The notes beneath the pieces are model-generated. The model was given only the letters and a program-made list of their open reading frames with translations. It was not told the origin of the DNA and did not search any database. This document shows positions 21,727 through 47,084 of a DNA stretch of 64,000 nt, in pieces (within the stretch, counting starts at the first letter, position 1; the number at the start of each line of letters is the position of its first letter). The position numbers were made by a program, and so were the translations under genes. Source of the DNA: a virus. The stretch lies in IMG/VR virus record IMGVR_UViG_3300043411_002995, positions 47,706-111,705 of that record; one strand, written 5' to 3'.

Positions 21727-21793
21727 CCACCACTCGTGAGAGTGTTTTCCGCCGCGCAAGCGGCGAAACACCCTCGCGGGTGGTTTCTTACCC
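21727..21793 (+). terminator. long GCAA-loop hairpin followed by TTTCTTACCC
   Basis: CCACTCGTGAG/CTCGCGGGTGG stem with G-U pairs, CGCCGC-GCAA-GCGGCG top. Confidence 0.7.
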
Positions 21794-21813
21794 ATGACCA
21801 GGATCGCTCCGCG

Positions 21814-21830
21814 GGCATAAGAAGAGGGAA
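21814..21830 (+). promoter_or_regulatory. phage-specific promoter candidate GGCATAAG-N6-GAA
   Basis: Exact motif upstream of ATG 21852. Confidence 0.75.
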
Positions 21831-21851
21831 CCCCCAACCAAAGGATTCCCC

Positions 21852-22274
21852 ATGCGCAACAAGCTCGTGGCGACGCTCGACATCGTGTTGAGCGCCCGCC
21901 TCATCCATGCAGAGATTGAACGCACCGTGGAGCAGGCCCACAAGGTCTGCGACCCCCACCTGGCGATCTCGTTCGCCAACGCCCGGCAGACCGTGTCGAA
22001 CCCCGTCGACATGGCCGTCGAGCTCGAGATGCTCGACGCCGCCATCGACCTCTCGAAGGAGAACCTGGCAGAGATCGAGGGCCTGAAGCGCTCGATCGCC
22101 AAGTCGCTCCAGGGCCACGAGGTCCTGGAAGCGCTCGGCAGCGCGCTCGTGTCGCAAGACATGATCGACGCCGTCGAGGAGAAGTTCCAGGTCACCGGGC
22201 TCAGGCTCGAGGAGATGGAGAAGCTGCGGGACCTCACCGTGTCCCGCGCCCGCGACCTCACCAGCCAGCTCTAG
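21852..22274 (+). CDS. hypothetical coiled-coil protein
   Basis: AAAGGA RBS, GC3 bias. Confidence 0.75.
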   Translation: MRNKLVATLDIVLSARLIHAEIERTVEQAHKVCDPHLAISFANARQTVSNPVDMAVELEMLDAAIDLSKENLAEIEGLKRSIAKSLQGHEVLEALGSALVSQDMIDAVEEKFQVTGLRLEEMEKLRDLTVSRARDLTSQL

Positions 22275-22302
22275 GGCTGGTGGGTGCGCGGGGCTTCTCT
22301 GC

Positions 22303-22312
22303 TCTCTTAGCC
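22303..22312 (+). terminator. conserved 3' element TCTCTTAGCC
   Basis: Follows an imperfect hairpin around the 22274 stop and a pyrimidine tract. Confidence 0.55.
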
Positions 22313-22331
22313 TTCGGGTACACTCGCCACC

Positions 22332-22829
22332 ATGACGCCGTTCCTCCAGGCCTTCACCGATGAGCTGGTCAAGCTCGGCGCGGACAACGACCTGGTCGAC
22401 GTCTTCCGGGAGGCCAAGAAGGAGACCCGGAGGCAGCCGGCGCGGGACAGCGCCCTGAGCGCGCTGCGCGGGAACGGCACCCCGGTCAGCCGCAACTACC
22501 TCGCGTCGATGTTGATCGGCGGGATCTCGGTGCCGGCGGTGGCGGTCATGAGCAAGCGGATCTCGCGGGCCCTGAACAACAAGACCGTGCAGCGTGAGCT
22601 CCGCGGCCTTGGGCCGATGGCGCACCCGAAGAAGGTCCGGGCGCTGCGCGACGAGTTGCACACCGGCCCGTCGTTCGGGCGCGCGCGCCCCGGCACGCCG
22701 TTGAACACCCGGCCGCTCATCACGCACGGCGAGGCCGCCGGTCTTGCGGCGAGCGGCGTCGCGACCGGTGGCCTGGTGCAGATGATCCGGGACTACTTCG
22801 CGGGCAGCGCGCCGACGACCCCGCGCTAG
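22332..22829 (+). CDS. putative internal head protein with AFTDELVKLG tag
   Basis: MTPFLQAFTDELVKLGA; TACACT 7 nt before the ATG (leaderless). Confidence 0.75.
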   Translation: MTPFLQAFTDELVKLGADNDLVDVFREAKKETRRQPARDSALSALRGNGTPVSRNYLASMLIGGISVPAVAVMSKRISRALNNKTVQRELRGLGPMAHPKKVRALRDELHTGPSFGRARPGTPLNTRPLITHGEAAGLAASGVATGGLVQMIRDYFAGSAPTTPR

Positions 22830-24601
22830 AAGCGGTTCGAGCTGATGTCGGCGGCGAGCTTGCAGTAGACCAGCGAGTGCAGCCCGTCGTCGGGCTGGTC
22901 GATCGGGTGGTCGTAGTTCATCGTGCGCGTGCGCTCGTTGTACTCGATGTACTCGGCGAGGATGTCCTTGCCGAAGGACTCGAACTCGGCCCACTCGGGG
23001 AGGATGAACTTCTTCTGCTTGAAGCCGAGGAAGGTGTCGGCGAGGACGGCGTTGCGGTTGATGATGAACTTGTGGGCCTCAGGGTCGTACTTCTTCCGCT
23101 CGCCGAGGCTGGTGGAGTAGGCGAACTGCATGACGCCGGTGCGGCCGCGGGCCTTGAAGAGGCGGCTGTTGACGCCCCAGCCGTGGCCCCAGTCGGCGCC
23201 GAGGACCTCGACACCCCAGTGGCCGCAGATGTTGAGCACGTCGGGGACGATGATCTCGGGATCGATGTCCTTGCCGGTGTAGCGCTTCCAGAGGAAGGGC
23301 CAGAAGAGCTCGTCGTTGACGTAGGCCCCGAGCGTGAGCACGGTCCACGACGCGAACTTCTTCCGCCCCTTCTCGGCCGAGCCCTCCTGGCGTCCTTCGC
23401 CCCAGTCGATCCCGCCGAAGATGCGGAGGCCGTGCATCTTCGAGTTCTTGGTGTGGATGATCTTGCGCGTCTCGCGCGTGGGGATCTGCTTGTCGGGGTA
23501 GCAGCACTTCTGCAGGTCCATCCGCGTCACGGGGGCGGACGCGGTGTCGTACGAGAAGCCGAGGATCTCGTTCTGGAACTTGTTCTCGGGCCACTTCTCG
23601 TAGGGGAGGACGATCTCCTTCCGCCAGGCGTTCTCCCCCTGCTTCCAGGGGACCATCAGCTGGGAGATGTGGTAGCCGACGTAGTACTCGCCGGGGCAGA
23701 AGGTGACCCACTGACCCTGGGAGGCGTCGAGGGCCTTGCCGCAGTTGGAGCAGATCAGGCCGGTCTTGCCGATGTTCCGCTCGTCGAGGAAGTTCCAGTA
23801 GCTCCCCGCCTCGCCGCTCTTGCAGTCGCAGGGGACGAGCCACTCGTTCTGCGTGGACCACTGCCAGTACTCCTCGAGGGTGTTGGAGTGGGTCAGCGGC
23901 GTGCCGGTGATCATCTCCGAGCCCTGGACGCCGGCGGAAAGCAACGAGGCCGACAGCGACTGGCTGATGACCTTGATGTTGTCCTTGAGCAAGTCCTGGG
24001 CTTCGTCGAAGAACACGCGCGACGCCGGGATGCCGCGGGCGCGGGCGGCGGTCAGGTACGCCGCGCGCAAGAAGATGTACGACCCGTTCATCAGGGTCTT
24101 CTCGAAGACCTGATCGATGACGCCCTTGCCGAGGTACAGGTTCTTCAGGAAGGGCGAGTCGTAGAGGGTCGGCCGCAGCTTCTCGTTCGAGTACTGCCGG
24201 GTCTGTTGGTGCGACGGCGAGACGTAGAGCGTGCGCCAGTGGGGGTGGAGCACGGCCTCGAGGATCTGGAGGCAGCAGACCGTCGTCGACTTCGCGACCT
24301 GGCGCGAGGTCTTCATGACCAGCTGGCTGTCCTGGTCGTTGTAGATCGGGATCAGGAAGGCGTGGTTGTCGAGCCGGAGCGGCTTGCCGAGGTGGTAGAG
24401 GATCGCCTGGGCGATGTCGGATCGGCGCCCGTGGAACGTGGGGATGCCGCCCTCGGACTTCGCGGCGAACTCCTTCAGCTGCGGCGCCCACTTGTAGGCC
24501 GCGTTCCAGTTGATGTCCCGGATCATCGCCGGGCGCGCTTCCCCCTTGCCCTCGAAGTCGAAGGGGTCGTCCTCGAGGACGCCATCGGCTTCGTCCAGCA
24601 C
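22826..24601 (-). CDS. terL: terminase large subunit
   Basis: GTG 24601 with AAGGAG; KTSRQVAKST (Walker A), VFFDEAQD (Walker B), ITGTP, FGGIDWG and PDDGLH nuclease motifs. Confidence 0.9.
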   Translation of the reverse strand: MLDEADGVLEDDPFDFEGKGEARPAMIRDINWNAAYKWAPQLKEFAAKSEGGIPTFHGRRSDIAQAILYHLGKPLRLDNHAFLIPIYNDQDSQLVMKTSRQVAKSTTVCCLQILEAVLHPHWRTLYVSPSHQQTRQYSNEKLRPTLYDSPFLKNLYLGKGVIDQVFEKTLMNGSYIFLRAAYLTAARARGIPASRVFFDEAQDLLKDNIKVISQSLSASLLSAGVQGSEMITGTPLTHSNTLEEYWQWSTQNEWLVPCDCKSGEAGSYWNFLDERNIGKTGLICSNCGKALDASQGQWVTFCPGEYYVGYHISQLMVPWKQGENAWRKEIVLPYEKWPENKFQNEILGFSYDTASAPVTRMDLQKCCYPDKQIPTRETRKIIHTKNSKMHGLRIFGGIDWGEGRQEGSAEKGRKKFASWTVLTLGAYVNDELFWPFLWKRYTGKDIDPEIIVPDVLNICGHWGVEVLGADWGHGWGVNSRLFKARGRTGVMQFAYSTSLGERKKYDPEAHKFIINRNAVLADTFLGFKQKKFILPEWAEFESFGKDILAEYIEYNERTRTMNYDHPIDQPDDGLHSLVYCKLAADISSNRF

Positions 24602-25497
24602 TAGGACTCCTTCTTGTCGGCGGTCTTCTTCGTGGGAACCGCGACCTGGCCGGCCAGCTGCGCCAGGGAGATGTGGGAGGACTTCTCGGGCTTCACCGAG
24701 AAGAGCCCCTGGAAGTCGGCGGTGCTGGGGGTGCCGTCGCTCTTCGGCACGCCGAGCCCGGCGGTCTTCTTGACGCTGAGCGCGCGCAGGGTGAGCTCGG
24801 CCCACCGCATGGCGCCAGCGAGCTCGGGTTGGGGGGTGTCCATCGCCAGCTTGAACTGCTGGTACGTCTTGTTGATGATCGTGTTGACGATCTGCTCGTC
24901 GCTGTGGACCGACGCGACGCCGAGCATGTCCCGCACCTCCTCCGCGGTGGGCGAGGCGACGCCGAAGGCGACGTAGCTGCGCTCCTCCTGGGAGATGAGC
25001 TTCTTGTAGAAGTCGTCCCAGGCCTTGCGGCTGAGCAGCTTGACGTCCCAGTAGATGTGCCGGTAGGTGCTCAGGGCGTCGTTGCTGAGCTCGATCCCGT
25101 AGTGCTCGAAGAGGAGCTTCTGGATCTCGCCGGCGCTGGCGCGCGAGAGCAGCAGGCAGCCCAGGATGGCGCGCGTGTGGACGTTCGTGAAGAGCCGGAA
25201 GGCCAGGTCGGCGTGGGGCGGCGCGGCCGCGCGGCCGAACTCGCGCTGCATCCGCCAGAGGTCACCGACGCCCTCGGCGTCGGCCCAGGCGAGCACTCCC
25301 TCCAGGTCGGTGATCTCGGTGTCGGTGCCGTCGATGAACGCGCCGACCGACGTCGGCGCGGTGTCGCGGAGGTGCTGGCGGCAGTCGGCGAGCCACAGGT
25401 CGCCGACGCGCGGCAGCTCGTAGCGCTCAAGCGTCGAGTTGATCTCGATCTTGCGCGAGACGAGGAACCGGAGGAATCGCTCGTAGGGGTACCTCAC
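24601..25497 (-). CDS. hypothetical protein, possible terminase small subunit
   Basis: Coupled directly upstream of terL; helical; function from position only. Confidence 0.55.
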   Translation of the reverse strand: MRYPYERFLRFLVSRKIEINSTLERYELPRVGDLWLADCRQHLRDTAPTSVGAFIDGTDTEITDLEGVLAWADAEGVGDLWRMQREFGRAAAPPHADLAFRLFTNVHTRAILGCLLLSRASAGEIQKLLFEHYGIELSNDALSTYRHIYWDVKLLSRKAWDDFYKKLISQEERSYVAFGVASPTAEEVRDMLGVASVHSDEQIVNTIINKTYQQFKLAMDTPQPELAGAMRWAELTLRALSVKKTAGLGVPKSDGTPSTADFQGLFSVKPEKSSHISLAQLAGQVAVPTKKTADKKES

Positions 25498-25503
25498 GCG
25501 AGC

Positions 25504-27684: not shown

Positions 27685-27694
27685 GAGAGGGCTC

Positions 27695-28144: not shown

Positions 28145-28148
28145 GGGG

Positions 28149-29138: not shown

Positions 29139-29157
29139 AGAGGACTCCTCCCCCCCT

Positions 29158-29174
29158 GGCATAAGGAACACGAA
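29158..29174 (+). promoter_or_regulatory. phage-specific promoter candidate GGCATAAG-N6-GAA
   Basis: Exact motif upstream of ssb. Confidence 0.75.
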
Positions 29175-29209
29175 GCAGCATCCAATCTGCTGAGAACAAG
29201 GAGCCAACC

Positions 29210-29665
29210 ATGTCTTCCGTGAACAAGATGATCCTGATCGGCCACCTCGGAGCCGATCCCGAACTCAAGCACATCCCATCGGGGCAGCCCGTCTGCACCT
29301 TCACGATCGCCACCAACGAGGTCTGGAAGGACAAGTCGGGTGAGAAGCAAGAGCGCGTCGAGTGGACCAACATCGTCGCGTGGGGTCCGCTCGCCGAGGT
29401 CTGCGCGAAGTACCTGGCCAAGGGCCGGCAGGTCTACGTCGAGGGCCGCAAGCAGACGCGGACCTACGACGACAAGGAGGGCGTGAAGCGCTACTTCACC
29501 GAGTGCGTCGCCCAGGAGGTGAAGTTCCTCGGCGACGGCAAGGGTGACGGGGACGGTCGCGGTGAGAGCCGCGGCCGCAGCGACAGCAAGCCGTCGGGCC
29601 GCCGCGATGACGGCCCTCCGCCCCGTGGCCCGGGCCCCGGCGCGGACGACGACATCCCGTTCTGA
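29210..29665 (+). CDS. ssb: single-stranded DNA-binding protein
   Basis: [28 protein letters not shown]-terminal DDDIPF. Confidence 0.97.
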
Positions 29666-29691
29666 TCCCCTGCAACCAATGGGGGTGATCA

Positions 29692-30201
29692 ATGTCTTCG
29701 TATCTCGTCATCATGAGACACCGAGCCAAGTCTCTCGTGGCTAAGGCCACGGATTGTCGGCTCACCCTGGGCGAGTTCCTGCTCGACCAGACGGGCATCG
29801 TGGCGCGGCTCAACGGCGCGCTGGCGAAGTACTCGCGCCACATCGGCTGGCCCTACGTGCCCATCGGGTTCGCGACGCTGCGCGCCCTGATGGAGGACAT
29901 CCGCTACGGCGAGGCCGACACGTTCGATCTGGTCTGCCGGCGGTTCGGGTTCTCGGAGTCCGCCTCAGCGCCGATCGTCGAACGGGCGATCGGCCGGGTC
30001 GAGTGGCACATCGGTCCTGACGCACCGTGCGAGACCATGTGGCACGAGTCCGACCTGATCGAGGACGCCCAACGGCTCATCCGCTGGGGCGAGAGCCTCG
30101 TCACCCGCTGCCCCAACGGCGTCGTCGCGCACCAGCTGCAGGCGCTGGTGGCGATGTCGCGCGAGGACCTCGGGCGGTACGTCGCCCGCGCTCTGGGGTA
30201 G
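29692..30201 (+). CDS. hypothetical protein
   Basis: GC3 bias, follows ssb. Confidence 0.65.
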   Translation: MSSYLVIMRHRAKSLVAKATDCRLTLGEFLLDQTGIVARLNGALAKYSRHIGWPYVPIGFATLRALMEDIRYGEADTFDLVCRRFGFSESASAPIVERAIGRVEWHIGPDAPCETMWHESDLIEDAQRLIRWGESLVTRCPNGVVAHQLQALVAMSREDLGRYVARALG

Positions 30202-30211
30202 CATCCTCGGG

Positions 30212-30691
30212 ATGCGGAAGCCCCCCGAGGACATGACCAGCACGGAGGACCTCTGGCTCCGTGCGCTCGATCGCCAATGGCAGGAAACCCCCGAGCACCT
30301 CAAGGAGCTCGGGCAGGTCCTGCGCCGCAGCGTCGACCACGATGTGGACGAGCTCGCGGCATTCCTTTCCAAGCACGAGATCCAGGTCGCCGCGGAACAC
30401 CTCGCGGAGTTCCGCGACGTCCTGATCGTCAAGCGCATCGACATGAAGGACCTCGAGCCAGCGGCGCGCGCCCGCCTGCGCGCCCGCCTCCTTCAAGCCG
30501 ACGACCCGCGCCACATGACGGCGGACTACGCCGCGGCCATCCAGGCCGGCGAAGTCCCGCGGTGCCGCAGCTGCCGATGGTTCGTCACCGCACCCGGTGA
30601 CACCACCGCCGGCGGCGACAAGCCCTGCACCAGCTTCGGAACCAAGGGCGCCGACCAGGCGTGCTTCGGCTTCACGAAGACCGATCTCTGA
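30212..30691 (+). CDS. hypothetical protein with C-terminal Cys4 cluster
   Basis: CRSC...C...C; TAGCAT 7 nt before the ATG. Confidence 0.7.
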   Translation: MRKPPEDMTSTEDLWLRALDRQWQETPEHLKELGQVLRRSVDHDVDELAAFLSKHEIQVAAEHLAEFRDVLIVKRIDMKDLEPAARARLRARLLQADDPRHMTADYAAAIQAGEVPRCRSCRWFVTAPGDTTAGGDKPCTSFGTKGADQACFGFTKTDL

Positions 30692-30722
30692 AAAGGCTCT
30701 CGCTCCTTCATGAGCCTTTTCG

Positions 30723-30771
30723 ACGGCGCACGGGGCGGTTGGCTCCCAACCCCTGCGCCGTTTTTTTAGCC
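30723..30771 (+). terminator. intrinsic terminator hairpin plus T-run ending TTAGCC
   Basis: ACGGCGCA...TGCGCCGT stem then TTTTTTTAGCC. Confidence 0.8.
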
Positions 30772-31869
30772 TGAGGGCGTCGCGAGCCGCGAGCCGCGAG
30801 CCGGGTTGTAGAGCGACTCGACCATGTCCTTGTAGAAGGCGGTCTTGCTCGGCGGCTTCGCCTGGGCGCGCTCCTTCGCCGGCCCGCCGACCTGCCCAGG
30901 ACCGATGCTCTTCGGCTTGGGCGGGCTGGTCCCCATGCGCCAGGCCGAGCTCGCGCTCGAGCGCAAGGCCCCCGGTGCCTTGACCTCGGCGCCGGCCGCC
31001 GCCGCCCCGAGCTTCTCCTCCTGCGCTTCGAGCTCGCCCGCCCGCCGCTTCGCCGCCGCCCCTTCCCTCAGCGCCTCGACCAGCCGCTTGGCCAGGATGG
31101 TCGCCAGGACCGGCGCCGCCGCCGCCGCGACGTAGGTGCCGAAGGACGGGGCGAGCTCCTTCAGTGCGCGCATGGTGCCGTAGCCGCTGTGGCGAGCCCC
31201 CTGCAACGCCTTGTAGGACGCCCGCGCCTCCTCGATGAGTTCGGGGGCGGTGGTGGCGGCCACCAGCGCGGGGGCGTGGTCGTAGACGAACCGCCGGACC
31301 CGCTCCCCCTCCTGGGGCTCCGAGATCGTGCTGGCCGCGAGCCCCGCCCGAACCAGGTGGCCGATGGTGGACCCCGTGCCGAGCGTCTTGCCCATCGACT
31401 GGAGGGCCCGCCGCAGGTCGTGGCTGCCGGCGATCGGCGAGGCGTGGCCGATCTCGTGGAACGCCTGTGGGACCGACGACCGGTTGAGCCCGATGTGGGG
31501 GGTGACGTCGCCGACGGGCTCGCCGGCGATGCGCATGAGCAGGCTGCGGAGCGGGCCGGGGCGGTCCATGAAGTAGCCGGACTCGAACCCCGGCCCACCG
31601 GCGATGATGGGGACGGTGACGCCGCTCTTGCGGGCGAAGTCGGCGATTGCCTCCGCCTCGGCGCGCGTGAACTTCGAGAGCCGCTTCAGCGGCGTGCCGG
31701 TGTCGTCGTCGAGCGGCACGCCGGACATGAGCAGCTTCGCGAGCCCGTGCGGAGCGTCGCTCGTGAGCGGAGAGATCACGCGAGGAAGCCCTTCGTACGC
31801 GGCCGCGGCCGCGAGCGCTGGCGCGACGCCGAGCCCCCCACCGTCTTCCTGGTCCCGATCGTCGGACAT
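30766..31869 (-). CDS. membrane-associated zinc metallopeptidase (YugP/Zn_peptidase_2-like)
   Basis: AFHEIGHA, LIEEARASYKAL, FGTYVAAA; start overlaps the RNAP stop. Confidence 0.7.
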   Translation of the reverse strand: MSDDRDQEDGGGLGVAPALAAAAAYEGLPRVISPLTSDAPHGLAKLLMSGVPLDDDTGTPLKRLSKFTRAEAEAIADFARKSGVTVPIIAGGPGFESGYFMDRPGPLRSLLMRIAGEPVGDVTPHIGLNRSSVPQAFHEIGHASPIAGSHDLRRALQSMGKTLGTGSTIGHLVRAGLAASTISEPQEGERVRRFVYDHAPALVAATTAPELIEEARASYKALQGARHSGYGTMRALKELAPSFGTYVAAAAAPVLATILAKRLVEALREGAAAKRRAGELEAQEEKLGAAAAGAEVKAPGALRSSASSAWRMGTSPPKPKSIGPGQVGGPAKERAQAKPPSKTAFYKDMVESLYNPARGSRLATPSG

Positions 31870-34800: not shown

Positions 34801-37800
34801 TCGGGGTTCACCCAGAGCTTGCCGGTGACCAGGCCACTGAACTGCTGCTCGTTGAGCCCGGTGAGCTGTCGGATCGGCTTCTCGAAGATGGGGTTCGGGA
34901 CGGGCTCGGCCAGATCGATGTGCCCCCAGCGGTCGCCCTTGCGGCCGCCGAAGACCGTGCGGTCGAGCAACCCGCCGCGCTCCTCCTTCAGGTCCTTGGC
35001 GTTGACGAAGACCGGATCGACGACCGCGCCGTTGCTGATCTTGTCGACGTCGGCGTCCGTCATCGGCTGCAGGACCATCTTCGAGCCGTTCCGCTTCACG
35101 TTGATGCCGGCGGCCTGGAGGTAGCCCTCGAACTTCTTGTAGGCGAAGGTCGGGGTCGGCGGCGGCTTCATCAGCCCTGAGCCGGCGCCGCCGGCGAGCC
35201 AGGTCCAGAACGGCTCGTTCTTGGACGCCTTGTAGGTCGCCATCTCGCGCAGGTTCGCGCGCGCGCCATGCGACAGCATCGAGTAGAAGGTGATGAGGTC
35301 GAGCGCCTTGGCGCCTTCCTCGCCGCCGCTCACGGGGTTCCCGTTGGAGTCGTACTTGCCCTCGCCGCGCGCCGAGTACTGGGTAGTCGCCTGCTTTCCG
35401 AGCTTCAGGATGTACTGCGGCCCGGTCATGACCTGCCCCAACGCCTCCTTGCTGTGGGGGTCGTAGAGCGTCTCGGTGTCGGAGACGCCGGCCTTGGCCA
35501 GCTCGTCGCTGACCCGCTGGGCGTACCCGTCCTTGCTCGTGATCGCGTTGTCGACGATGTAGGGCTTGCCCCGGTGCTCGGCGAGCTTGGCGGCCGCCGT
35601 CTCGAGCATCTGGGACGGGTTCACGCGGCTGGTGATGCCGTGCGGGTTGAGGAGGATATCGATCGGCTCGTGCGTGCCGTCGGGCTTGATCGAGTACGGC
35701 GCCTCCGCATCCTCGATGATCTTCGTGATGATGCCCTTGCCGCCGTGACGGTTCGTGACCTTGTCGCCGATCTGCGCTGGCTCGCGCGTGCGGACGTAGA
35801 CCTTCACCTTCTTGCCCGTGCGGACGACGTCGACGACCTCGCCGTCGTAGTCCTCGGTCCACTCCTCGGCGACCCCCCGCTTCGGGGGCATGTTGGCGCC
35901 GAGGCGACGCATCGCGAGGTAGTCGGGGTCGTTCTTGTTGTCCTTGGTGCCGACCCAGAGCGGGTCGCCCTTGCGGACGATCTGTCCCTTCCGGATGACC
36001 CCATCCTTGTCGAGCTTGGCCGAGGTCTCGTCGTCGATCGCCCCGGGCTTCCACGCCCGGTACTGGTCGAGCGAGAGGGTCGTCTGCTCGTTGAGCATCG
36101 TCGAGTACTGGTGCATGTGCTCGCTGGTGAGCTTTTTGCGCGCGCTCTCGGTGATGACGATGCCGTCCTCGAAGTTGTAGCCCTTCCAGGGGATGTAGGC
36201 GGCCTTGAGGTTGGTGCCGATCGCCATCACCCCGTCGGAGGTGAAGTTGGTGTCGGCCAGGGTCTCGCCCTTCTTGACGGCCTGCCCCTCGACCACGCGC
36301 ACCGTCGAGTCGACGAACGCCTTGTTGTTCAGCGGGAGGTTGCTGAACAGCGGATGCTCGTTCTCGCCGTCCTTGGTCTTGACCACGATCTTGTTCTTCG
36401 AGATCGACTGGACGACGCCGTCCTCGAGGGCGGCGGTGGAGAAACTCCCGCCGATCGCCCGCTCGATCGTGCCGCCCCCGACCTTCACCTGCACGAGCGG
36501 CGCCTCGCGGTTGACCAGCGGGATCGCCTGCTCGAGCATCTTGGTCGCCATCTGCGCCCGGACGCCCATGGCGGCGGGCAAGAAGGGGATGGTGTTCGAG
36601 GCGATCGAGAAGGCCTGCCGTGGTGAGTGCAGCACCACGTCGACCTGGTCGGCATCGACCAGCCGGCGCTCCCCGTTGACGTGGGCCAGCACCTTCTTGT
36701 CGATCGCCACGCCGTCCTCGAACTGGTCGGAGAAGGAGAGCGTGAGGTTCGCGGCCTCGGCCGCGGTGATCTTCCGGTTCTTCTTCGTCTTGACGTCGTA
36801 GACGGTGGTCTCGAGCTCGTCGCCGCGCTTGCTCACGCCCACCGGCAGGTGCATCGTCAGGCCGATGTGGCCGGAGTCGGGCGTGTGGATCGGATCGATG
36901 AACCCGAGCTGCGACGGGTGGACGGCGCGCTCCTCCGCCCGGACGTTCTGCGCGTTGGACCCCGCGCCGCCCTCGCCCATGATGGTGACCTTGGTCATCC
37001 CGTTGAGCATGTGGATCGGGTTCGTCTGATCGGGCACGTGGGCGTGCCCGCCGGTCTGCGTGAAGAACGACGAGAGCGTCGAGGAGAGCTGGTTCGAGCT
37101 CACGAGCTGCCCGACCTGCGTCGGGGGCTGCCGCTGGTTGTTCAGCTTCCGCAGGATCTTCCTGCGGTACTCGTTGAGGAACGGCTGGATCTCGCCGTTG
37201 TCCTTGACGAGACGCTCGCGCATCAGGTCCGAGACGGACATGATCTTCTTGAACTCGAGGGACTGGCGATCGTCGGGCGCCCGCTTCCCAGCGGCGGCGG
37301 CGATCAGCTCCTTGGAGCTGGCGACGATGGCCTCGGGGGAGACCTTGTCGAAGGCCTGGCCCACCGTCTTCTTGGTGACCTCGGGGCGGAGCTCGGTCTG
37401 GTCGAAGTAGGCCAGGAGCGCCTTGCCGGCCTCGTCAGGCGTCTCGAACCGCGGGCGCGTGTCACCCGCCCGCAGCCGCTTCAGGTCGGCGGCCTTGTCG
37501 GCGGCGAAGTACTCGGCGGCCTTCTTGACGGACTCGTTCGCCTTCTTCTTCGAGGCGGCCTTGTTCGCGCTGAGGATCTGGTCGCCCCAGGCCCGCGCCA
37601 GGGTTGAGTCGGCCACGCCCATGGCCGAGAGGATGGGGTAGAGCGCCGGGCCGCTCTTGTCCTCGGCGCCGCCGGCGCGGCGGGCGAGGCGGAAGACCGT
37701 GGAGGCGGGGTTGAACTCGACGTCGAAGGCGCGGCCGGCGACGTTGATCTCGGCCTTCGTCTCGCCGTTCTTCTTCTCGGTGACGTAGATGCCCGGCTTG

Positions 37801-38156
37801 CGGCGCAGCTGGCTCTGCACCTGGTAGTGCTTGCCGTCGACGATGAAACTGCCGAAGTTGGTGGCCTTGGGCAGGGTCGCGATCTTCATGCGCTTCTGCG
37901 TGGAGATCACCTTCCCGGTCTTGCGGTCGGTGAGCTCGAGGTTCGCGTAGACCGGGACGCCCCAGGTCTTGTCCTTCCGCACGGCCTCGCGCTGGCCCTC
38001 GGCGTCCCCGGGATCAGCCGAGTCGTCGACCCAGACCTCCTTGGCCCGGAGGCGGAGGCCGGTCTGCTCGGCCTGGACGTCGAGGGCCTTGGTGAAGGCC
38101 TCCGCGATGTCCTTCTTCACCTTCTCGAACTGGCTCTGGTAGTCGAAGCTCTCCAT
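31869..38156 (-). CDS. rpoBC: single-chain beta/beta' fusion DNA-directed RNA polymerase
   Basis: beta motifs GYNFEDGI, GDKVTNRHGGKG, LNPHGITSRVN; beta' motifs LLNRAPSLH, NADFDGD (33900-33920), SGARG, EPLTQMTMRTFH; no stop between halves. Confidence 0.95.
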   Translation of the reverse strand: MESFDYQSQFEKVKKDIAEAFTKALDVQAEQTGLRLRAKEVWVDDSADPGDAEGQREAVRKDKTWGVPVYANLELTDRKTGKVISTQKRMKIATLPKATNFGSFIVDGKHYQVQSQLRRKPGIYVTEKKNGETKAEINVAGRAFDVEFNPASTVFRLARRAGGAEDKSGPALYPILSAMGVADSTLARAWGDQILSANKAASKKKANESVKKAAEYFAADKAADLKRLRAGDTRPRFETPDEAGKALLAYFDQTELRPEVTKKTVGQAFDKVSPEAIVASSKELIAAAAGKRAPDDRQSLEFKKIMSVSDLMRERLVKDNGEIQPFLNEYRRKILRKLNNQRQPPTQVGQLVSSNQLSSTLSSFFTQTGGHAHVPDQTNPIHMLNGMTKVTIMGEGGAGSNAQNVRAEERAVHPSQLGFIDPIHTPDSGHIGLTMHLPVGVSKRGDELETTVYDVKTKKNRKITAAEAANLTLSFSDQFEDGVAIDKKVLAHVNGERRLVDADQVDVVLHSPRQAFSIASNTIPFLPAAMGVRAQMATKMLEQAIPLVNREAPLVQVKVGGGTIERAIGGSFSTAALEDGVVQSISKNKIVVKTKDGENEHPLFSNLPLNNKAFVDSTVRVVEGQAVKKGETLADTNFTSDGVMAIGTNLKAAYIPWKGYNFEDGIVITESARKKLTSEHMHQYSTMLNEQTTLSLDQYRAWKPGAIDDETSAKLDKDGVIRKGQIVRKGDPLWVGTKDNKNDPDYLAMRRLGANMPPKRGVAEEWTEDYDGEVVDVVRTGKKVKVYVRTREPAQIGDKVTNRHGGKGIITKIIEDAEAPYSIKPDGTHEPIDILLNPHGITSRVNPSQMLETAAAKLAEHRGKPYIVDNAITSKDGYAQRVSDELAKAGVSDTETLYDPHSKEALGQVMTGPQYILKLGKQATTQYSARGEGKYDSNGNPVSGGEEGAKALDLITFYSMLSHGARANLREMATYKASKNEPFWTWLAGGAGSGLMKPPPTPTFAYKKFEGYLQAAGINVKRNGSKMVLQPMTDADVDKISNGAVVDPVFVNAKDLKEERGGLLDRTVFGGRKGDRWGHIDLAEPVPNPIFEKPIRQLTGLNEQQFSGLVTGKLWVNPETGEFGDEKDPVTVTSGAAVKALLGKINVDDQISQWTEEAKQARTPEELDKANKSLKYLSALKKLKIRPEDAYVQTKLPVIPPNFRPVVEMEDGSLSTPGLNTLYRDLALVNNELKWQNDIPFIPDSVSAPLREDLYKGMQALSGIGKPIAFYPEARRPKGVLEQVKGKPAKTGYFQYEVLRRRQNLVGRGTIIPEPKLGVDEVGLPEEMSWTLFRPFVTRRLVNHSGMKPLAAEEEIDKRSPIALSALQAEMASRPVLLNRAPSLHKFSVMGFTPQMTDGRAIKIPPLVVKGFNADFDGDAMNVHVPILEDAIEEAYRMMPSRNLFNPGTGGIMIKPQNEAALGLYQMSRDPKYKPELLQVLPPELQTKFADRELDSKGLDELMRDLARVLPKDHGGVVDKLKKMGDLHTYKTGFTVSLKDLLPDLPEKKAIFERTRKGLLGLKLDTPEGRASGEQLISAANDELNAMLKVRLPEQDNNFDLMVRSGARGNRNQLKQIVSAPFMVDDHRGNAQLAPVMRSFAEGLPLSDYWATLYGARAAAVDKQMQTSEPGAFNKDIMATSVTQVVSRHDSGPQEGIELPVDNRSNDLEDRFLSKDIRIGGTVIAHAGDQVTAALLNTLRDRKQKTLWVMSPLTDPTPHGISAKSYGITENGKLPAIGDNVGAISGQAMSEPLTQMTMRTFHQGGVSGTRGVLDGYAAIDKLFKLHQIKRGRAALAEADGKVDRIEDVPGGGGTNIFIRGSKEPVFVEQGLWDSDRVRVGSEVKRGDILSKGIAQPQDLVRLKGMLPAMNYVVEEIHKAFDGQGVKLKRRAIETVVRAAGNTTRVLDPGDGPYLPGDVASWTVVNDYNNKKVGDLPLEEAVGHVVHEDDVPGATKGETFDETMKAVLERRGKKTIGVGPKRVVHEPFLAGIQRVPLLRDDWMGQMGYRELARGLIEGAATMSESDLHGYSPVPAFAYGAEFGDAPQGRSRKEGVY

Positions 38157-38174
38157 GGTCACCTGGTGCCGTCG

Positions 38175-38191
38175 GGCATAAGCCTCGTGAA
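38175..38191 (+). promoter_or_regulatory. phage-specific promoter candidate GGCATAAG-N6-GAA
   Basis: Exact motif, divergent from the RNAP start. Confidence 0.75.
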
Positions 38192-38300: not shown

Positions 38301-38525
38301 ATGTCCGCGCTGATCGTCCTGCTCAACCCGCGGCCGCGGGGCCGCTCTGCACCCAGTCGCCAGTCGCCCCCGACCCGGATCCGGGCACTGGCCGACGCTA
38401 GCATCCAGTTCGGCCGCACCCTGATCGCAGGCTGGATGCTGCTGGCCTGGGTCCTCATCCTGACGAAAGAGGCGATGCGCGGCATCGCGTGGCTCACCGG
38501 CGCCACCGCCGATCTGTCGGCATAA
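38301..38525 (+). CDS. small membrane protein
   Basis: GAGGAG RBS; TLIAGWMLLAWVLIL helix. Confidence 0.6.
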   Translation: MSALIVLLNPRPRGRSAPSRQSPPTRIRALADASIQFGRTLIAGWMLLAWVLILTKEAMRGIAWLTGATADLSA

Positions 38526-38536
38526 GCCAGGGAGAA
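38519..38536 (+). promoter_or_regulatory. phage-specific promoter candidate GGCATAAG-N7-GAA
   Basis: Overlaps the TAA of the preceding ORF, upstream of ATG 38544. Confidence 0.65.
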
Positions 38537-38543
38537 GGAGACT

Positions 38544-38999
38544 ATGTCCTCGTACATCTGCCTGAGGCGCTACGGCCTCATCCGCAAGGCGGCGCCGGCA
38601 CCCCAGCCCGTCCGCTTCTACAAGACCATGCAGAGCCTCGCGGCGATCACCGCGAGCGTCACGGTGCCAGCCCACGGCATGCTGGTCTCGGGCTTCTCCC
38701 ACCAGTCCATCCCCATGCGATCCCAGATCTGGACCTTCTTCAAGCAGCTCCTCCGGGGGTGCGCTTGGGCCGCGGCGATCGCCGCGGGCATGTTGGTCTA
38801 CACGGCGTTCGTCTCCAAGTGGAAGGAGAACGGCTTCCCCACCATCCCCATCAGCGCGCTCGTGGCGATCGATCAGGCCATGCCCAAGAACGGTCCGTCG
38901 AACGTCGTCACGCTCGGTGGCGGCAGTGCGCAGGTCCCATCTCCGCGACCCGCCAACACCCGGCAGACGAACCTCATCGACATCGAGTACGAGGGCTAG
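38544..38999 (+). CDS. hypothetical membrane protein
   Basis: AAGGAG RBS; one hydrophobic helix. Confidence 0.65.
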   Translation: MSSYICLRRYGLIRKAAPAPQPVRFYKTMQSLAAITASVTVPAHGMLVSGFSHQSIPMRSQIWTFFKQLLRGCAWAAAIAAGMLVYTAFVSKWKENGFPTIPISALVAIDQAMPKNGPSNVVTLGGGSAQVPSPRPANTRQTNLIDIEYEG

Positions 39000-39460
39000 T
39001 CGAGCGCGCGCGCTACCAGCATCCCCGCCAACAAGGAGGTCGAGATCGCAGCAACCGTCCACGCGACCGGCGACCCCCACATCGGCTTGACCCGCTCGAG
39101 CTGGTACTTCTTGTCGAGTGCGATCAGATCGGAGGAGAGCTTGTCGGTGCGTGCGACAAGCAGCGCCTGGCTCTTGGCGTAGGTCGCCACCTGGTCCTGC
39201 AGGGACGTCACCTGCAGCGCCAGGTTGGCGGCGCGCTCGCCCTCTTTCTTAGCCACCACCCGCTGGTGGATCAGCTCGGCGTCGACCTCGAGGACGGCCT
39301 TCCAGTCGTCGATGTTGACGTAGCCGCAGATGGTTCCGATTCCCGGCACCACGTACTTCGTGCAGGGGGGAACCAGCTGCGGCTGGTAGACGTCGTCAGC
39401 GTGTGCCGGGGACGTCGTCCCAAGAACGGATGCGATCGATAGCGCGACGATCAGCCTCAT
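38996..39460 (-). CDS. secreted coiled-coil protein with C-terminal TM helix, spanin-partner candidate
   Basis: ATG 39460 with GAGGAGG; signal peptide ending AHA-D, two Cys, coiled coil, hydrophobic C-terminus. Confidence 0.6.
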   Translation of the reverse strand: MRLIVALSIASVLGTTSPAHADDVYQPQLVPPCTKYVVPGIGTICGYVNIDDWKAVLEVDAELIHQRVVAKKEGERAANLALQVTSLQDQVATYAKSQALLVARTDKLSSDLIALDKKYQLERVKPMWGSPVAWTVAAISTSLLAGMLVARALD

Positions 39461-40434: not shown

Positions 40435-40732
40435 CGGAGTCTCCTCTGGTACGGGAAGGGGTCTTGGCCCAGTAGTGAACGAGGAGGATGATCTCCTCGG
40501 TCGTCGTGCTGATGTTGCTCCCGCCCTCCATCGTCTCGGTGATGGTCTTCTTGCGAGAGTACTCCTTGATCATGTCGACCTTGATCCCTTCGGAGAGGTC
40601 GTTCATCCGGTTGCGGAGCTCCGCGTAGGCCTCGCGATCCCCCTGCTCGAAGAGGTTGAACTCCTCGCAGTAGAACGTCCCGAGGTTGCGCCCGCCGACG
40701 CCGCCGAAGTTGACGGGGGTAGCCTTCGCCAT
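40388..40732 (-). CDS. hypothetical protein
   Basis: Start coupled to the portal stop. Confidence 0.65.
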   Translation of the reverse strand: MAKATPVNFGGVGGRNLGTFYCEEFNLFEQGDREAYAELRNRMNDLSEGIKVDMIKEYSRKKTITETMEGGSNISTTTEEIILLVHYWAKTPSRTRGDSDEDDEEDRRRIAPAG

Positions 40733-42765
40733 CAGATCGGCCCTCCGTCACGCCGCGGAGGCGCCGCCTGGGGCAGTGGCTTCTGCTGGTCGGCGACGTC
40801 GCCGGCGGTGGCGCCGGGCGCCATCTGGGACAGGAGCTGCTCGACCAGGCGGGCCATGTTGGGCATCTTCGCGCGCAGCTCGTTGAGGACCTGGACGCGC
40901 TGGCCCTGGTCCATCTTGGAGATCTTGTTGGCCCACTGCTTGGCGACCCGGGCCGCATCGAGCTGCACGACCTGGCCGCCCTGGCCGCCCACGTCCGTCC
41001 CGCCGGCTTGAGTCCCCGCCTCGCCGGCGACGGCCGCCTGCTGCTGGGATGCCTGTTGCTGGGCCGCCTGCTGCGCCATCTGCTGGTCCTGGGCCATCTG
41101 CTCGGGCCCTGCGGCAGGCGCCGGCGCGCCGCCCATGGCCGGGTCCTGGGCCTGCCCTGGAGGCAACGCGCCCTGAGGCCCGGCGTTGCCCTGCTGCTCG
41201 TTCTGGGCCTGCCCCTCCATGCCCGGCTGTCCGCCGGCGGACGCGCCCTGGGCCTCCGCGAAGGCTTCCTGGGCGCGGGCCTGGTAGCGGGCCTGGACGA
41301 TCGACGACTCTCCCTGGGCCTCGGTCTGGGCCTTCATGGTGATCGCCTGGATGCGGTTCCGCTGCTCCGCCTCCTTCTCGATCATGTTGAGCTCGTCGTC
41401 GTAGTCGAACCCGAGCTCGGTGAGCATCGTGTGGTCCGAGATCTTGTTGGCAGCGTTCAGCTGGATGACGATCTGCTTGCGCTGGATGTCGTCCGCCATC
41501 TTGAACTCGGTGAACCCGATGACGACATCGGGCATCCCGAGGTAGAGGCGCACGCGGTTCTTCGCCCAGTTGACGAAGCGCAGCAGCAGCCGGCGGTACA
41601 AGAGGAAGTGGTTCTCGAGGGTGCGCAGCGAGACGGAGCTGCCCGACCACGAGAGGCCGCCGAAGACGAACTCGAGCGGCACGCCCATGCCGCCGGTGAT
41701 CTCCTTGTTCGTCACCTCGATCTCGGGCCCAAGGAGTAGGGCCCGGCCGTCGCCGCCCAAGCGCTCGAACCCGAGCGGTACAGCGACGACCGAGACGTAG
41801 TTCGGGTCGATGCGCCACTTGCGGATCTCCTCCTGCACCGTGCCCTGCCACGTGGACAGGTTGACGTGCTGGTAGGGGTCCTGCTGGGCGTTCGCCTGGG
41901 GGAAGATGAACTCGAGCGGGAGGATGCGCTGCAGCGCGATCGCCTCCTGCGCGCGGCGCAGGACGTAGAGGTAGAACATCCGCCCCATCGAGTGGATGAT
42001 CAGCGGCTTGCCCCACCCCATGTCCTGCTCGGCCAAGGTCGGGCGCTTGAAGTGGAAGAGGTTCTGGTCCGAGAGCGCGACGTCGCGGCTCAGCTTCAGC
42101 GCCAACAGGAAGACCGCGGGGATGTCGACCAAGATCTCGCGCGACCCTTCCTGGATCGCCTTGCGGATCTTGTTCGGGATCTTGTAGCGGTACTTCGACC
42201 GCCCCGTGATCGGGTTGTAGTGGATGTCGATGTTCTTCGGGTCCCACCGAACGAAGTTGATGCCGGTCCGGTCCTTGATCGGCCTGTCGACGATCTCCCC
42301 GACGACCTCGGCGCGGCAGGCCTGGCAACCGTAGTGGAACTGGAAGTTGCGGAACTTGTAGCTGAACGACTCGTCGGAGAGTCGAGCCATCGACTTGCAG
42401 GCTGGGCAGCGCAGCCACCGCACGAACGGCAGGTTCATCGAGATGAACGCGTTGCCGTAGCAGAAGTAGTCGAGGCCGATCTCGATCAGGAAGGGCTTGA
42501 GGTTGAGCTCGTCCTCGAGGAGGGTCTTCCACCCGTCACGGACGTGCTTCTCGTCGGCGTTGTAGACGAAGTCCGTGACCGGGTACTCGGCGATCTTGGT
42601 GACCACCGACCCGATCATCGGGTCCTTGTAGAAGAAGTACTGGCACCACCGGAAGAGCTCCTTCACGGTCGGCGGCATGTACGTCTGCGCGATGTCGAAG
42701 AACGGGGACGGGTACACCGTCCCCCGTCGCCGATCGAGTCGCCCTTGGAACATGCCGTCGGACAT
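40732..42765 (-). CDS. portal protein
   Basis: 677 aa; KIAEYPVT, DYFCYGNAF, LFHFK....GWGKP, ITGGMGVPLEF portal-like motifs; Gln/Ala-rich tail. Confidence 0.8.
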   Translation of the reverse strand: MSDGMFQGRLDRRRGTVYPSPFFDIAQTYMPPTVKELFRWCQYFFYKDPMIGSVVTKIAEYPVTDFVYNADEKHVRDGWKTLLEDELNLKPFLIEIGLDYFCYGNAFISMNLPFVRWLRCPACKSMARLSDESFSYKFRNFQFHYGCQACRAEVVGEIVDRPIKDRTGINFVRWDPKNIDIHYNPITGRSKYRYKIPNKIRKAIQEGSREILVDIPAVFLLALKLSRDVALSDQNLFHFKRPTLAEQDMGWGKPLIIHSMGRMFYLYVLRRAQEAIALQRILPLEFIFPQANAQQDPYQHVNLSTWQGTVQEEIRKWRIDPNYVSVVAVPLGFERLGGDGRALLLGPEIEVTNKEITGGMGVPLEFVFGGLSWSGSSVSLRTLENHFLLYRRLLLRFVNWAKNRVRLYLGMPDVVIGFTEFKMADDIQRKQIVIQLNAANKISDHTMLTELGFDYDDELNMIEKEAEQRNRIQAITMKAQTEAQGESSIVQARYQARAQEAFAEAQGASAGGQPGMEGQAQNEQQGNAGPQGALPPGQAQDPAMGGAPAPAAGPEQMAQDQQMAQQAAQQQASQQQAAVAGEAGTQAGGTDVGGQGGQVVQLDAARVAKQWANKISKMDQGQRVQVLNELRAKMPNMARLVEQLLSQMAPGATAGDVADQQKPLPQAAPPRRDGGPI

Positions 42766-42779
42766 GGTGGCCTACCGGC

Positions 42780-44108: not shown

Positions 44109-44110
44109 GG

Positions 44111-44311
44111 TCAGCCTCCGGCGGCCCAGGCCGGGCCGCGGCCGCGGCCGCGCGCAGGGTCGAAGCCGTCTTCGACTACCTGGGCGAGTTCGCGTTCGAA
44201 GTCCTGGCGGGTCTTGTCCATGAACTCTCTGCGGAACTCGGAGATCGTGGCCGCCAGTTCTCTGGCTGCCTCGACTTCCGAGGGCGGGGTCGGGTCGTCA
44301 GACTGCATCAT
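44111..44311 (-). CDS. small hypothetical protein
   Basis: ATGA overlap with the upstream gene; fills the gap. Confidence 0.5.
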   Translation of the reverse strand: MMQSDDPTPPSEVEAARELAATISEFRREFMDKTRQDFERELAQVVEDGFDPARGRGRGPAWAAGG

Positions 44312-45348: not shown

Positions 45349-45349
45349 G

Positions 45350-46495
45350 CTACGCCTCGCCGGAGATGACCTGCTTGATCAGCGCCTTCTCGGGGGCCGG
45401 GAGCGACTCGTAGATCTCGACCGGGTTGGCCGCGAACTGGCTGGCGAAGCTCGACCCCATGTAGCCGGCGATCTTCTTCTGGACAGCCTCCTTGCGCAGG
45501 TCGGCCTCGGTGATCGTCATCCCGTCGACCTCGTCGGACCACCCCTCGGCGACCTTGCCCATGGTGCTGGCATAAGGGTCGCTGAGCCCCCGATCGTAGT
45601 ACCGCGACAGCCCGGTCGCGGCGTCGATGGCCTGGAGGGCTGCTGCAGCGTCCTCCGGGCTGGTCTCCCCCAGGGAGGCCGCCAGCTTGTCGAGGACCGA
45701 CCGAGCGTCCTGGTTGCGAGGAAGGAGGGACTTGCGCTGCTCGATGTGGGCCAGCACGTGGCGGTTCCAGCCCGGCGACGCCCACTTCTCGAGGAGGTCG
45801 TGACCGGAGACGTCCACCTCGAGCTCGGCCGCGCGGGCCTGCACGTTGCGCGCGAACTGGTGACGGTGCGGAGGCGAGAGGTCCATGGCGTACTTGTCGA
45901 AATACTCGGCCGCCACCTTCACGTACTCGGCCGTCGGCATCGCGTACTTGCGCAGGATGGTCCCGTCCTCCGAGCGCACCACGAGCCCCCAGTGCTCGTT
46001 GGGCAGGTTGACGAAGGCCTCGATCTCCGCGGCCTGGGCCTGCTTCTCGATGAACTCGCGCTCGGCGAGCTTGCGCAGCATCCACCCAGTCTCCGATCCC
46101 TCGACGAAGGTGTTGCTCGTCGCCTCGTCATCACCCACCCGCGCCGCGTACGCGGCCACCATCTTCGAGTTCGGCACCCCGTACGCGTCGCATGCGGTCT
46201 TGATGAACTTGGCGGCGATGAACCTCGCCGGCCAGGCCAGCTTCTCGTGCGTCGCCTGGAAGTACTGGGCGCTCAACCAGGCGTTGCCCGGGTCGTTCAC
46301 CGGGTAGCGCCGCATCACCGCCGCGCGCTTGGTCAGGACGATCAAGCCGAAGTCGGTGTCCGGCAACGCGGCGTGCTGGTCCGCCGTCAAGACCGTGGTC
46401 TGCGCGCGCGCGATCGCGGCAGGCATGGCGATCTTGCTCATCAACTCGTGCTTGCTGTCGTCGTAGAAGTCGAGGACCGCGGCTGCGATGGTCAT
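45350..46495 (-). CDS. hypothetical head-associated protein with internal duplication
   Basis: LPDTDFGLIV...RRYPV and LPNEHWGLVV...RKYAM repeats; many K-x-A. Confidence 0.7.
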   Translation of the reverse strand: MTIAAAVLDFYDDSKHELMSKIAMPAAIARAQTTVLTADQHAALPDTDFGLIVLTKRAAVMRRYPVNDPGNAWLSAQYFQATHEKLAWPARFIAAKFIKTACDAYGVPNSKMVAAYAARVGDDEATSNTFVEGSETGWMLRKLAEREFIEKQAQAAEIEAFVNLPNEHWGLVVRSEDGTILRKYAMPTAEYVKVAAEYFDKYAMDLSPPHRHQFARNVQARAAELEVDVSGHDLLEKWASPGWNRHVLAHIEQRKSLLPRNQDARSVLDKLAASLGETSPEDAAAALQAIDAATGLSRYYDRGLSDPYASTMGKVAEGWSDEVDGMTITEADLRKEAVQKKIAGYMGSSFASQFAANPVEIYESLPAPEKALIKQVISGEA

Positions 46496-46523
46496 TCTGA
46501 TCGCCTTTCCCTGCGCAGCAGGA

Positions 46524-46553
46524 ACGGTATCACGCGCCTCGAAGGGGGGTCAA
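46524..46553 (-). promoter_or_regulatory. sigma70-type promoter TTGACC-N18-TACCGT
   Basis: Same hexamers as at 8033-8062; heads the portal operon. Confidence 0.7.
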
Positions 46554-46579
46554 CGCAGGGGAACCACTCGACCTTTCCA

Positions 46580-46596
46580 GGCATAAGAACCTTGAA
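46580..46596 (+). promoter_or_regulatory. phage-specific promoter candidate GGCATAAG-N6-GAA
   Basis: Exact motif upstream of the lone plus-strand gene at 46686. Confidence 0.75.
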
Positions 46597-46685
46597 CGAG
46601 GAGCAATACCTCGATCACCTCCGTCGATGGTGCGCCACCACCGCCGGAGTTTCTTCAACGGCGCAGATACAGGGAGCCACCCATC

Positions 46686-47027
46686 ATGACCACCGCCGCC
46701 AACACCGCCGCCAAGTCCGAGTCCGCCACCCCCGTCGTCGAGAAGCCCGGGCTGTTCAGCCGCGTCGGTTCCTCGCTCACCGACTTCCAGACCAACGTCA
46801 CGGTCGCCAACCCCTTCCTCGGCACTGCCGCCGGGGTCGCCCTCTACTCCGGGGTCGCCGCTGTCGCGGCGCCCCTGGCCAAGAAGGCGATCTCCGGCGC
46901 GCAGAGCCTGTTCGGGCGCGGCGCCAAGACGGCGGTCGAGGAGGCGAGCAAGGAAGCCGCGCAGGAGCAGGCCGCGAACTTCGCGAGCGGCGGGGGCAGC
47001 ATCCTCGGCCTCTTCGGCCGCAAGTAG
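46686..47027 (+). CDS. small Ala/Gly-rich membrane-type protein
   Basis: GGGAG RBS; FLGTAAGVALYSGVAAVAAPL. Confidence 0.75.
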   Translation: MTTAANTAAKSESATPVVEKPGLFSRVGSSLTDFQTNVTVANPFLGTAAGVALYSGVAAVAAPLAKKAISGAQSLFGRGAKTAVEEASKEAAQEQAANFASGGGSILGLFGRK

Positions 47028-47036
47028 CGCCACCGT

Positions 47037-47084
47037 CACCCCCGCCCGCAAGGGCGGGGGTGGTCTCACCCGTTTCTCTTAGCC
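47037..47084 (+). terminator. GCAA-loop hairpin plus TCTCTTAGCC
   Basis: 11-bp stem CACCCCCGCCC-GCAA-GGGCGGGGGTG; motif at 47075-47084. Confidence 0.75.

Follow-up and report, generated by a model that had tools for sequence, protein, structure and literature searches.

A hairpin, T run and A-G-C-[C/T] box as the probable terminator of plus-strand transcription units in an uncultivated phage lineage with a fused RNA polymerase

The plus-strand islands and their T-rich element

The stretch of DNA analysed here (the window) comprises the final 64 kb of the IMG/VR virus contig IMGVR_UViG_3300043411_002995, which is 111.7 kb long, has a GC content of 68% and is 71% complete according to CheckV. 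It is occupied mostly by minus-strand structural genes, among which a single-chain, fused β-β′ RNA polymerase (RNAP) is also encoded, and it is interrupted by four small plus-strand islands (20655-22829, 29210-30691, 38301-38999 and 46686-47027, as framed by the GC content at third codon positions, GC3). The subject of this report is a short T-rich element, TYTYTTASCC, which recurs in these islands together with an upstream hairpin and a promoter-like motif, GGCATAAG (Table 1).

The original prediction had placed five copies of the element in the window, and all five, beginning at 21784, 22303, 30762, 39245 and 47075, proved to be exact matches on the plus strand. Shuffled sequence yields 0.10 copies on expectation, with none of 100 shuffles reaching five, and the whole contig holds six copies on the plus strand and none on the minus strand. 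Since the pattern was fitted post hoc, the shuffle figure overstates the significance, and the independent support for the element is that provided by its relatives (below). Runs of at least five T residues number seven on the plus strand of the contig and one on the minus strand. The copies occupy sites after the stops of plus-strand genes, ahead of the next promoter or of the stop of a convergent gene; that at 47075, for example, lies 1 nt from the TGA stop of minus-strand gene 47086-47376. The proposal that one copy closes each island holds for the ends of islands 2 to 4, but not for island 1, where the copies at 21784 and 22303 are internal and the last gene is without one.

All five copies, rather than the four originally counted, are preceded by hairpins that fold significantly better than shuffled sequence, and the two GCAA loops reported earlier are indeed present. 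In intrinsic terminators, a U-rich tract of ~7-9 nt would be expected to begin no more than ~2 nt past the stem. The stem abuts the T-rich tract at 21784 and 30762; at 39245 and 47075 the tract is adjoined by weak proximal stems of 5 bp, and at 22303 by a weak, G-U-containing stem. A separate terminator scan flagged small proximal hairpins just before the tract at 21769-21782, 39227-39241 and 47058-47071. A stable GC-rich stem-loop of the kind found in intrinsic terminators accompanies the five window copies and those of the relatives. It sits 3′ of a gene on the strand being transcribed, and its structure is kept rather than the sequence of its stem.

Table 1. Positions of the element, its hairpins, the promoter-like motifs and the principal genes of the window (z, folding energy against shuffles)
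Position	Strand	Feature	Remarks
1828-4653	minus arm	Tail sheath	
21352..21359	+	GGCATAAG promoter-like motif heading gene 21382	Further copies at 21814, 29158, 38175, 38519, 45569, 46580
21729..21783	+	Long extended hairpin, GCAA loop, abutting T-rich tract	After gene 21382-21717; -40.6 kcal/mol, z -7.6
21784..21793	+	TTTCTTACCC, U-rich tract and distal box (ACCC variant)	GGCATAAG promoter at 21814, 20 nt downstream
22250..22291	+	Hairpin	After gene 21852-22274; -33.7 kcal/mol, z -3.7
22303..22312	+	TCTCTTAGCC, U-rich tract and AGCC box	Between two plus-strand genes
22319..22324	+	TACACT, -10-like hexamer	7 nt before ATG of gene 22332-22829; same spacing for TACACT in G001 and TAGACT in G005
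22826-24805	minus arm	Large terminase	
30722..30761	+	Strong hairpin ending island 2	-24 to -30 kcal/mol, z -3.0
30762..30771	+	TTTTTTAGCC, canonical U-tract and AGCC box	End of island 2 (SSB island)
31869-38162	minus	Fused β-β′ RNA polymerase, single chain	2097 aa; Pfam Rpb2_6 3.7e-44, Rpb1_2 2.4e-26
39176..39241	+	Long imperfect hairpin within antisense of spanin-like gene	-45.5 kcal/mol, z -4.3
39245..39254	+	TTTCTTAGCC, antisense within minus-strand gene 38996-~39400	Codons GCT AAG AAA; closes island 3
40732-42765	minus arm	Portal	
46496-46600, 20624-20700, others	-	Sigma70-like promoters at starts of minus-strand operons	One upstream of gene ending 46495
47035..47071	+	GC-rich hairpin, GCAA loop	After gene 46686-47027; z -3.4
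47075..47084	+	TCTCTTAGCC, U-rich tract and AGCC box	Closes island 4; non-coding
58082-60136	minus arm	Baseplate J	

Form and conservation of the element across relatives

Relatives were retrieved through terminase and RNAP searches of IMG/VR, and the close-clade set used here comprises the window contig (G000) and ten further contigs of 51-67% GC, oriented like the window, so that the 11 contigs span 51-68% GC. Because permissive hairpin and terminator finders called hundreds of sites in this 68% GC genome, these were dropped in favour of a definition combining a run of at least five T residues with a compact hairpin, at energy cut-offs of -9, -12 and -15 kcal/mol. Likewise, a self-trained codon-based gene caller selected shadow open reading frames in the high-GC genomes, and GC3-based gene calls were therefore used there instead.

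An unbiased scan of five genomes for strand-biased 7-mers returned, behind GGCATAA, the plus-strand words T7, TTTTTTA (30:3) and TTTTTAG (31:4) as the top hits. In this five-genome comparison set, AGC is the commonest triplet after runs of at least six T residues on the plus strand (18 of 99), and it follows one of 43 such runs on the minus strand. When hairpin and T5 sites of all 11 genomes were considered, AGC came next at 19 of 83, 16 of 46 and 15 of 31 plus-strand sites with increasing stringency of the energy cut-off, i.e. its share climbs from 23% to 35% and 48%, and at none of 31, 15 and 9 sites on the minus strand. At the strictest cut-off, AGC[CT] specifically is present at 15 of the 31 plus-strand sites, as against none of the nine on the minus strand. 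Such a climb with hairpin strength is compatible with a terminator that depends on its hairpin and has the box as an accessory.

Read across these genomes, the element is a GC-rich hairpin followed by a T run and then by A-G-C-[C/T]. In the genomes of 67-68% GC the T run has been eroded to TYTCTT, hence the TYTYTTASCC by which the element was recognised; relatives of lower GC content carry T6-9AGCY, the reverse complement of which is GGCTAAAAAA. Of the sequence-specific terminator that had been proposed, only A-G-C-[C/T] stands as a sequence-specific addition, while TYTYTT would be the worn U-tract of a terminator of intrinsic type. Distant relatives, with 35-39% RNAP identity, also possess clear hairpin-T5/6-AGC[CT] sites and no GGCAYAAG at all. 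A raw strand bias of TTTAGC[CT] in AT-rich distant relatives stems from antisense Ala/Leu-Lys codons of the RNAP gene and was not counted as support.

When seven genomes are compared at the end of island 2, ungapped pairwise identity amounts to 0.29 for the hairpin zone and 0.67 for the T run, reaches 1.00 over AGCC and drops to 0.40 across the following 20 nt, where the C-terminus of the convergent gene is encoded. The corresponding values at the end of island 4, for five genomes, are 0.31, 0.56, 0.75 and 0.30; at this site the box falls in non-coding sequence in G000 and G002, overlaps or abuts the stop in the others, and reads AGCC in G005, AGCT in G002 and G007, and AGAC in G004. Every homologous site has a hairpin despite an identity of ~0.3 in the stem zone. 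On the minus strand, the box at 30762 forms the Gly-TAA end of gene 30766-31869. Gly-TAA is kept in seven genomes, the residues preceding the Gly vary among them, and TAA is the stop of only three of the 108 called genes of this genome.

The copy at 39245 is embedded in an uncalled minus-strand gene, 38996-~39400, the product of which has a signal peptide with a Cys, a coiled coil and a C-terminal transmembrane helix, looks like a spanin and is found in six relatives. The gene overlaps the stop of plus-strand gene 38544-38999 by 4 nt. Its codons at the motif in G000 are GTG GCT AAG AAA, aligned with AAG CTA AAA AAA in L037/G007, CAG CTA AAA AAT in G004 and CAG CTA AAA ATT in G002; G005 and L035 have CTC AAG and no motif. 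A T run with AGCY is therefore kept at the same codons in four of six homologues, by way of AKK, LKK, LKN and LKI, and the codons employed are rare (in G000, GCT makes up 3.0% of Ala, AAA 0.93% of Lys and CTA 0.4% of Leu codons). The earlier remark that GCT-AAG-AAA is unusual in this genome, and the selection for the motif suggested on that ground, are both borne out. Among the sites compared, this embedded copy is the strongest case for selection acting at the nucleotide level.

Transcription units on the two strands

The GGCATAAG motif occurs seven times in the window, always on the plus strand, and GGCATAA ten times in the contig, again always on the plus strand; over the 11 genomes, GGCA[T/C]AAG is found 84 times on the plus and twice on the minus strand. 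In its extended form the promoter comprises a Y-rich stretch, GGCATAAG, N6 and GAA, followed by a Shine-Dalgarno (SD) sequence. Of 81 GGCAYAAG sites in ten genomes, 38 are followed by a box on the same strand at a distance of at most 2 kb, compared with 14.3 expected by random placement, and only nine are preceded by one within that distance. Genome-wide pairing thus agrees with the original prediction in placing the element at the 3′ ends of GGCATAAG-led plus-strand units. With P and T denoting promoter motif and element, island 1 reads P21352, gene, T21784, P21814, gene, T22303, gene; island 2 reads P29158, three genes, T30762; island 3 reads P38175/38519, gene(s), T39245; and island 4 reads P46580, gene, T47075.

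Internal copies are followed closely by a new promoter element, at a spacing of 1-28 nt. This element is GGCATAAG at 20-22 nt (after 21784 in the window and 70123 in G005) or TTGACA/TTGACG at 1-15 nt at several sites of the plus arm. At 22303, the homologous copies are TTTTCTTAGCC in G001 and T8AGCT in G005; the window copy, between two plus-strand genes, is probably a partial terminator (attenuator). Gene 22332-22829, which comes next, is without an SD sequence; combined with the conserved TACACT, this suggests a leaderless transcript, and the hexamer at 22319 is probably the promoter of such an mRNA, situated just after the terminator.

Further arrangements were observed on the plus strand. 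In G004 (51% GC), positions 12581-12662 in window orientation comprise GGCATAAG, 57 nt, a hairpin with TTAGCC and then an SD sequence and ATG, an attenuator-like order that would imply read-through or antitermination. The GGCATAAG copy at 45569-45576 lies within or just upstream of a minus-strand coding sequence with no plus-strand gene following, has a homologous copy at 85408 in G005, and may be an antisense promoter. Upstream of the window, L001:1505-1553 (contig 36197-36245) holds TTGACA immediately behind a T7-ACCC terminator, then TCACAC-CGG-GTGTGA, an inverted repeat without mismatch, and lastly TATGAG. G001 and G005 have the same order of elements, and the inverted repeat is a candidate repressor operator within a host-type promoter of the plus strand.

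The minus-strand operons differ in their signals. Their promoters are sigma70-like, of the form TTGACC-N15-17-(TGn)TAnnnT, and are conserved in four to five relatives at the corresponding positions; T-run terminators are nearly absent from these operons. These promoters suggest that host RNAP transcribes the structural genes as well as the phage RNAP gene itself.

As regards the wider context, a 10-kb megablast query had no match, and hence no close relative, among 50,697 records of deposited phages, a scan of the whole window revealed no Rfam family at the gathering threshold, and tRNAs were looked for and none was found. The first gene of island 2 (29210-29665, plus strand) encodes a single-stranded DNA-binding protein (SSB; Pfam PF00436, 6e-38), a replication-type gene that stands as a plus-strand island within the structural arm. 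The word AGACCGAGAC and shifted forms of it occur 9-13 times on one strand of the whole contig and are probably a tandem coding repeat.

Termination weighed against other explanations

The combined observations are probably best explained if the motif represents the 3′ half of intrinsic-type (hairpin and U-tract) terminators or attenuators, which punctuate the plus-strand units and carry a lineage-specific distal box. An RNAP would start a unit at GGCA[T/C]AAG or at another plus-strand promoter and make a GC-rich hairpin, which at several sites would be followed by a small proximal one. The U-rich tract would be transcribed next, and the weak rU:dA hybrid together with hairpin folding would release or pause the transcript near the conserved A-G that ends the T run. 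The sequences themselves show the anatomy of the element, its strand specificity, its conservation, selection at the level of codons and pairing with promoters; we infer from them that transcripts would end at the element, where either the phage β-β′ RNAP or the host RNAP may be the enzyme that stops, and that the A-G-C-[C/T] box would most likely adjust where pausing or release occurs. Where units converge, such terminators would prevent plus-strand transcripts from extending antisense into the late operons of the minus strand, and the insulation of the islands envisaged in the original prediction is plausible. Within plus-strand units, the new promoter following within so short a distance would result in terminator-promoter punctuation.

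Several points weigh against this explanation. The lineage is known from uncultivated metagenomic contigs, and termination is read from sequence only. A distance of 9-20 nt separates the large hairpin from the U-rich tract at 22303, 39245 and 47075, where the stems next to the tract are weak, and by canonical rules these terminators would be weak. The 22303 copy and the G004 copy, the latter between a promoter and its gene, are situated just upstream of genes that need to be expressed, which implies leaky or regulated termination. To our knowledge, there is no established mechanism for a conserved AGCY after a U-tract. Finally, gene calling in the relatives was home-made and is imperfect, and the sites in related genomes are partly non-independent, G003 being a near-duplicate of G005.

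The roles of hairpin and box could also be reversed, with the T run and AGCY as the primary, sequence-specific stop or pause signal, read in the RNA or the non-template strand by the phage β-β′ RNAP, a partner protein or a phage termination factor, and with the hairpin as an auxiliary; the poxvirus early signal and the T7 class II signal, described below, would be its analogues. The box is better conserved than all of its surroundings, it is kept inside a coding sequence at the cost of rare codons even where, in L037, only a modest hairpin is possible, and it is missing from the few terminators of the minus strand, whose operons have the sigma70-like promoters. It is also present in the distant relatives that share only the fused RNAP and not GGCAYAAG; this tracking of the polymerase rather than of the promoter leaves some room for a phage-polymerase-specific signal. 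However, a hairpin abuts or is near the T run in every window copy and in nearly all intergenic copies of the relatives, the AGC share rises with hairpin strength, and some strong hairpin and T8 sites have no box (genome 41364). The tie to hairpins points to an accessory rather than a primary role of the box, and we regard the reversed roles as unlikely. If they nonetheless applied, the lineage would possess a private promoter code (GGCATAAG-N6-GAA in one clade) and a private terminator code, which would separate the plus-strand programme from the host-type (TTGACC...TAnnnT) late programme of the minus strand.

Unit boundaries might instead be set post-transcriptionally, the hairpin protecting a 3′ end produced by a host or phage endoribonuclease that cuts UUAG/CY. 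Such a site would have the same anatomy as a terminator; a short single-stranded U/A-rich segment conserved after a stable hairpin resembles ribonuclease sites, and processing would suit the copies located upstream of genes requiring expression. On the other hand, a canonical T6-8 run immediately behind a GC hairpin is the hallmark of termination and we know of no nuclease with UUAG/CY specificity, so that processing appears quite improbable. More improbable still is the suggestion in the original prediction that the element is a second binding site for the factor recognising GGCATAAG; being inverted, such a site would act as a roadblock or as a minus-strand promoter. The idea derives from the high-GC reverse complement GGCTAAGARA, which resembles GGCATAAGRR minus one base. 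This claim is unsupported, as the box occurs in relatives without any GGCAYAAG, and the likeness is lost in the lower-GC T6-9AGCY sites, whose reverse complement RGCTAAAAAA is unlike the promoters there, which stay GGCATAAG. Furthermore, all 84 copies of the promoter motif have A as their fourth base, and a minus-strand promoter at these places would fire antisense into the plus-strand islands. Chance combined with coding constraint (T-rich codons, Gly-TAA stops and Lys-Lys codons of minus-strand genes) merits practically no weight: two window copies do overlap minus-strand codons, and TTTAGC[CT] in the AT-rich distant relatives is often antisense coding sequence, but copies outside coding sequence are conserved between genomes, those within it draw on the rarest codons and the rarest stop, one and the same DNA motif arises from different amino acids, and the element is linked with hairpins and upstream promoters. 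For the close clade, the genome comparisons refute it.

Other candidates were tried and rejected. A hairpin promoter of the type used by the N4 virion RNAP would call for a conserved stem and loop of fixed geometry, whereas stems and loops here differ wholly from copy to copy and from genome to genome. That TTAGCC serves as a -35 or UP element, or TAGCCT as a -10 element, is contradicted by a spacing to the next promoter element that varies from 1 to 28 nt and by convergent copies without a downstream plus-strand gene. Pairing of transcript ends in a 5′-3′ panhandle, GGCAUAAG/CUUAGCC, was dropped because transcription probably starts past GGCATAAG and because lower-GC relatives lack the resemblance.

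In comparison with known systems, the element shares with canonical intrinsic (Rho-independent) terminators a GC-rich stem-loop and U-rich tract located strand-specifically downstream of genes, sometimes with a promoter directly after. It departs from them in the A-G-C-[C/T] conserved after the U-tract though the hairpins share no sequence, in the erosion of the tract to TYTCTT at 67-68% GC, in the tandem large and small hairpins of some sites, and in the copy kept antisense inside a coding sequence. Telesnitsky and Chamberlin reportedly found in 1989 that, at the early terminators of T3 and T7, sequence just past the release site alters the termination efficiency of multisubunit RNAP; theirs is an efficiency effect at single terminators, and not a box common to a set of terminators. 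The poxvirus early signal U5NU and the T7 RNAP class II signal ATCTGTT are short U-rich, sequence-specific signals that act on virus-encoded polymerases free of hairpins, whereas here a hairpin accompanies every good copy. NusG assists mycobacterial RNAP at suboptimal terminators (PMC3993855). In Bacillus, NusG reads a TTNTTT motif in the non-template strand, and AGCY is not part of that motif. The interrupted T-rich tracts and modest hairpins at 22303, 39245 and 47075 could still terminate with the aid of a factor reading the T-rich non-template strand.

Giant phages with multisubunit RNAPs, phiKZ and 201phi2-1, are reported to have shared terminator motifs that go beyond hairpin and U-tract, and in 201phi2-1 the MEME motif A was found in 59 of 132 mapped terminators (PMC11512511). 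Their motifs derive from mapped 3′ ends and include the stem, whereas in the present lineage the stems are free, conservation is concentrated beyond the U run, the RNAP is a single fused β-β′ chain, and sequence searches do not relate the lineage to those phages. A paper on RNAP-encoding Caudovirales (PMC7481178) contains no promoter or terminator data, a literature search with GGCATAAG returned only primers, and neither the box nor the signals of this lineage are described in Rfam or in the literature searched. Terminators made of a hairpin and a U-tract are ordinary; what sets the present ones apart is mainly the conserved distal box and the codon cost at which it is kept.

These findings allow the transcription units of an uncultivated phage lineage with a fused RNAP to be mapped at the level of sequence, from the promoter motif to the boxed terminator, together with the host-type promoters of the opposite strand. 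That four bases are conserved over a range of 51% to 68% GC, and retained within a gene by means of codons used at below 1-3%, indicates that terminator-distal sequence may come under strong selection, which lies outside the standard models of terminators. Cassettes of hairpin and box could, moreover, serve as compact insulators for high-GC hosts.

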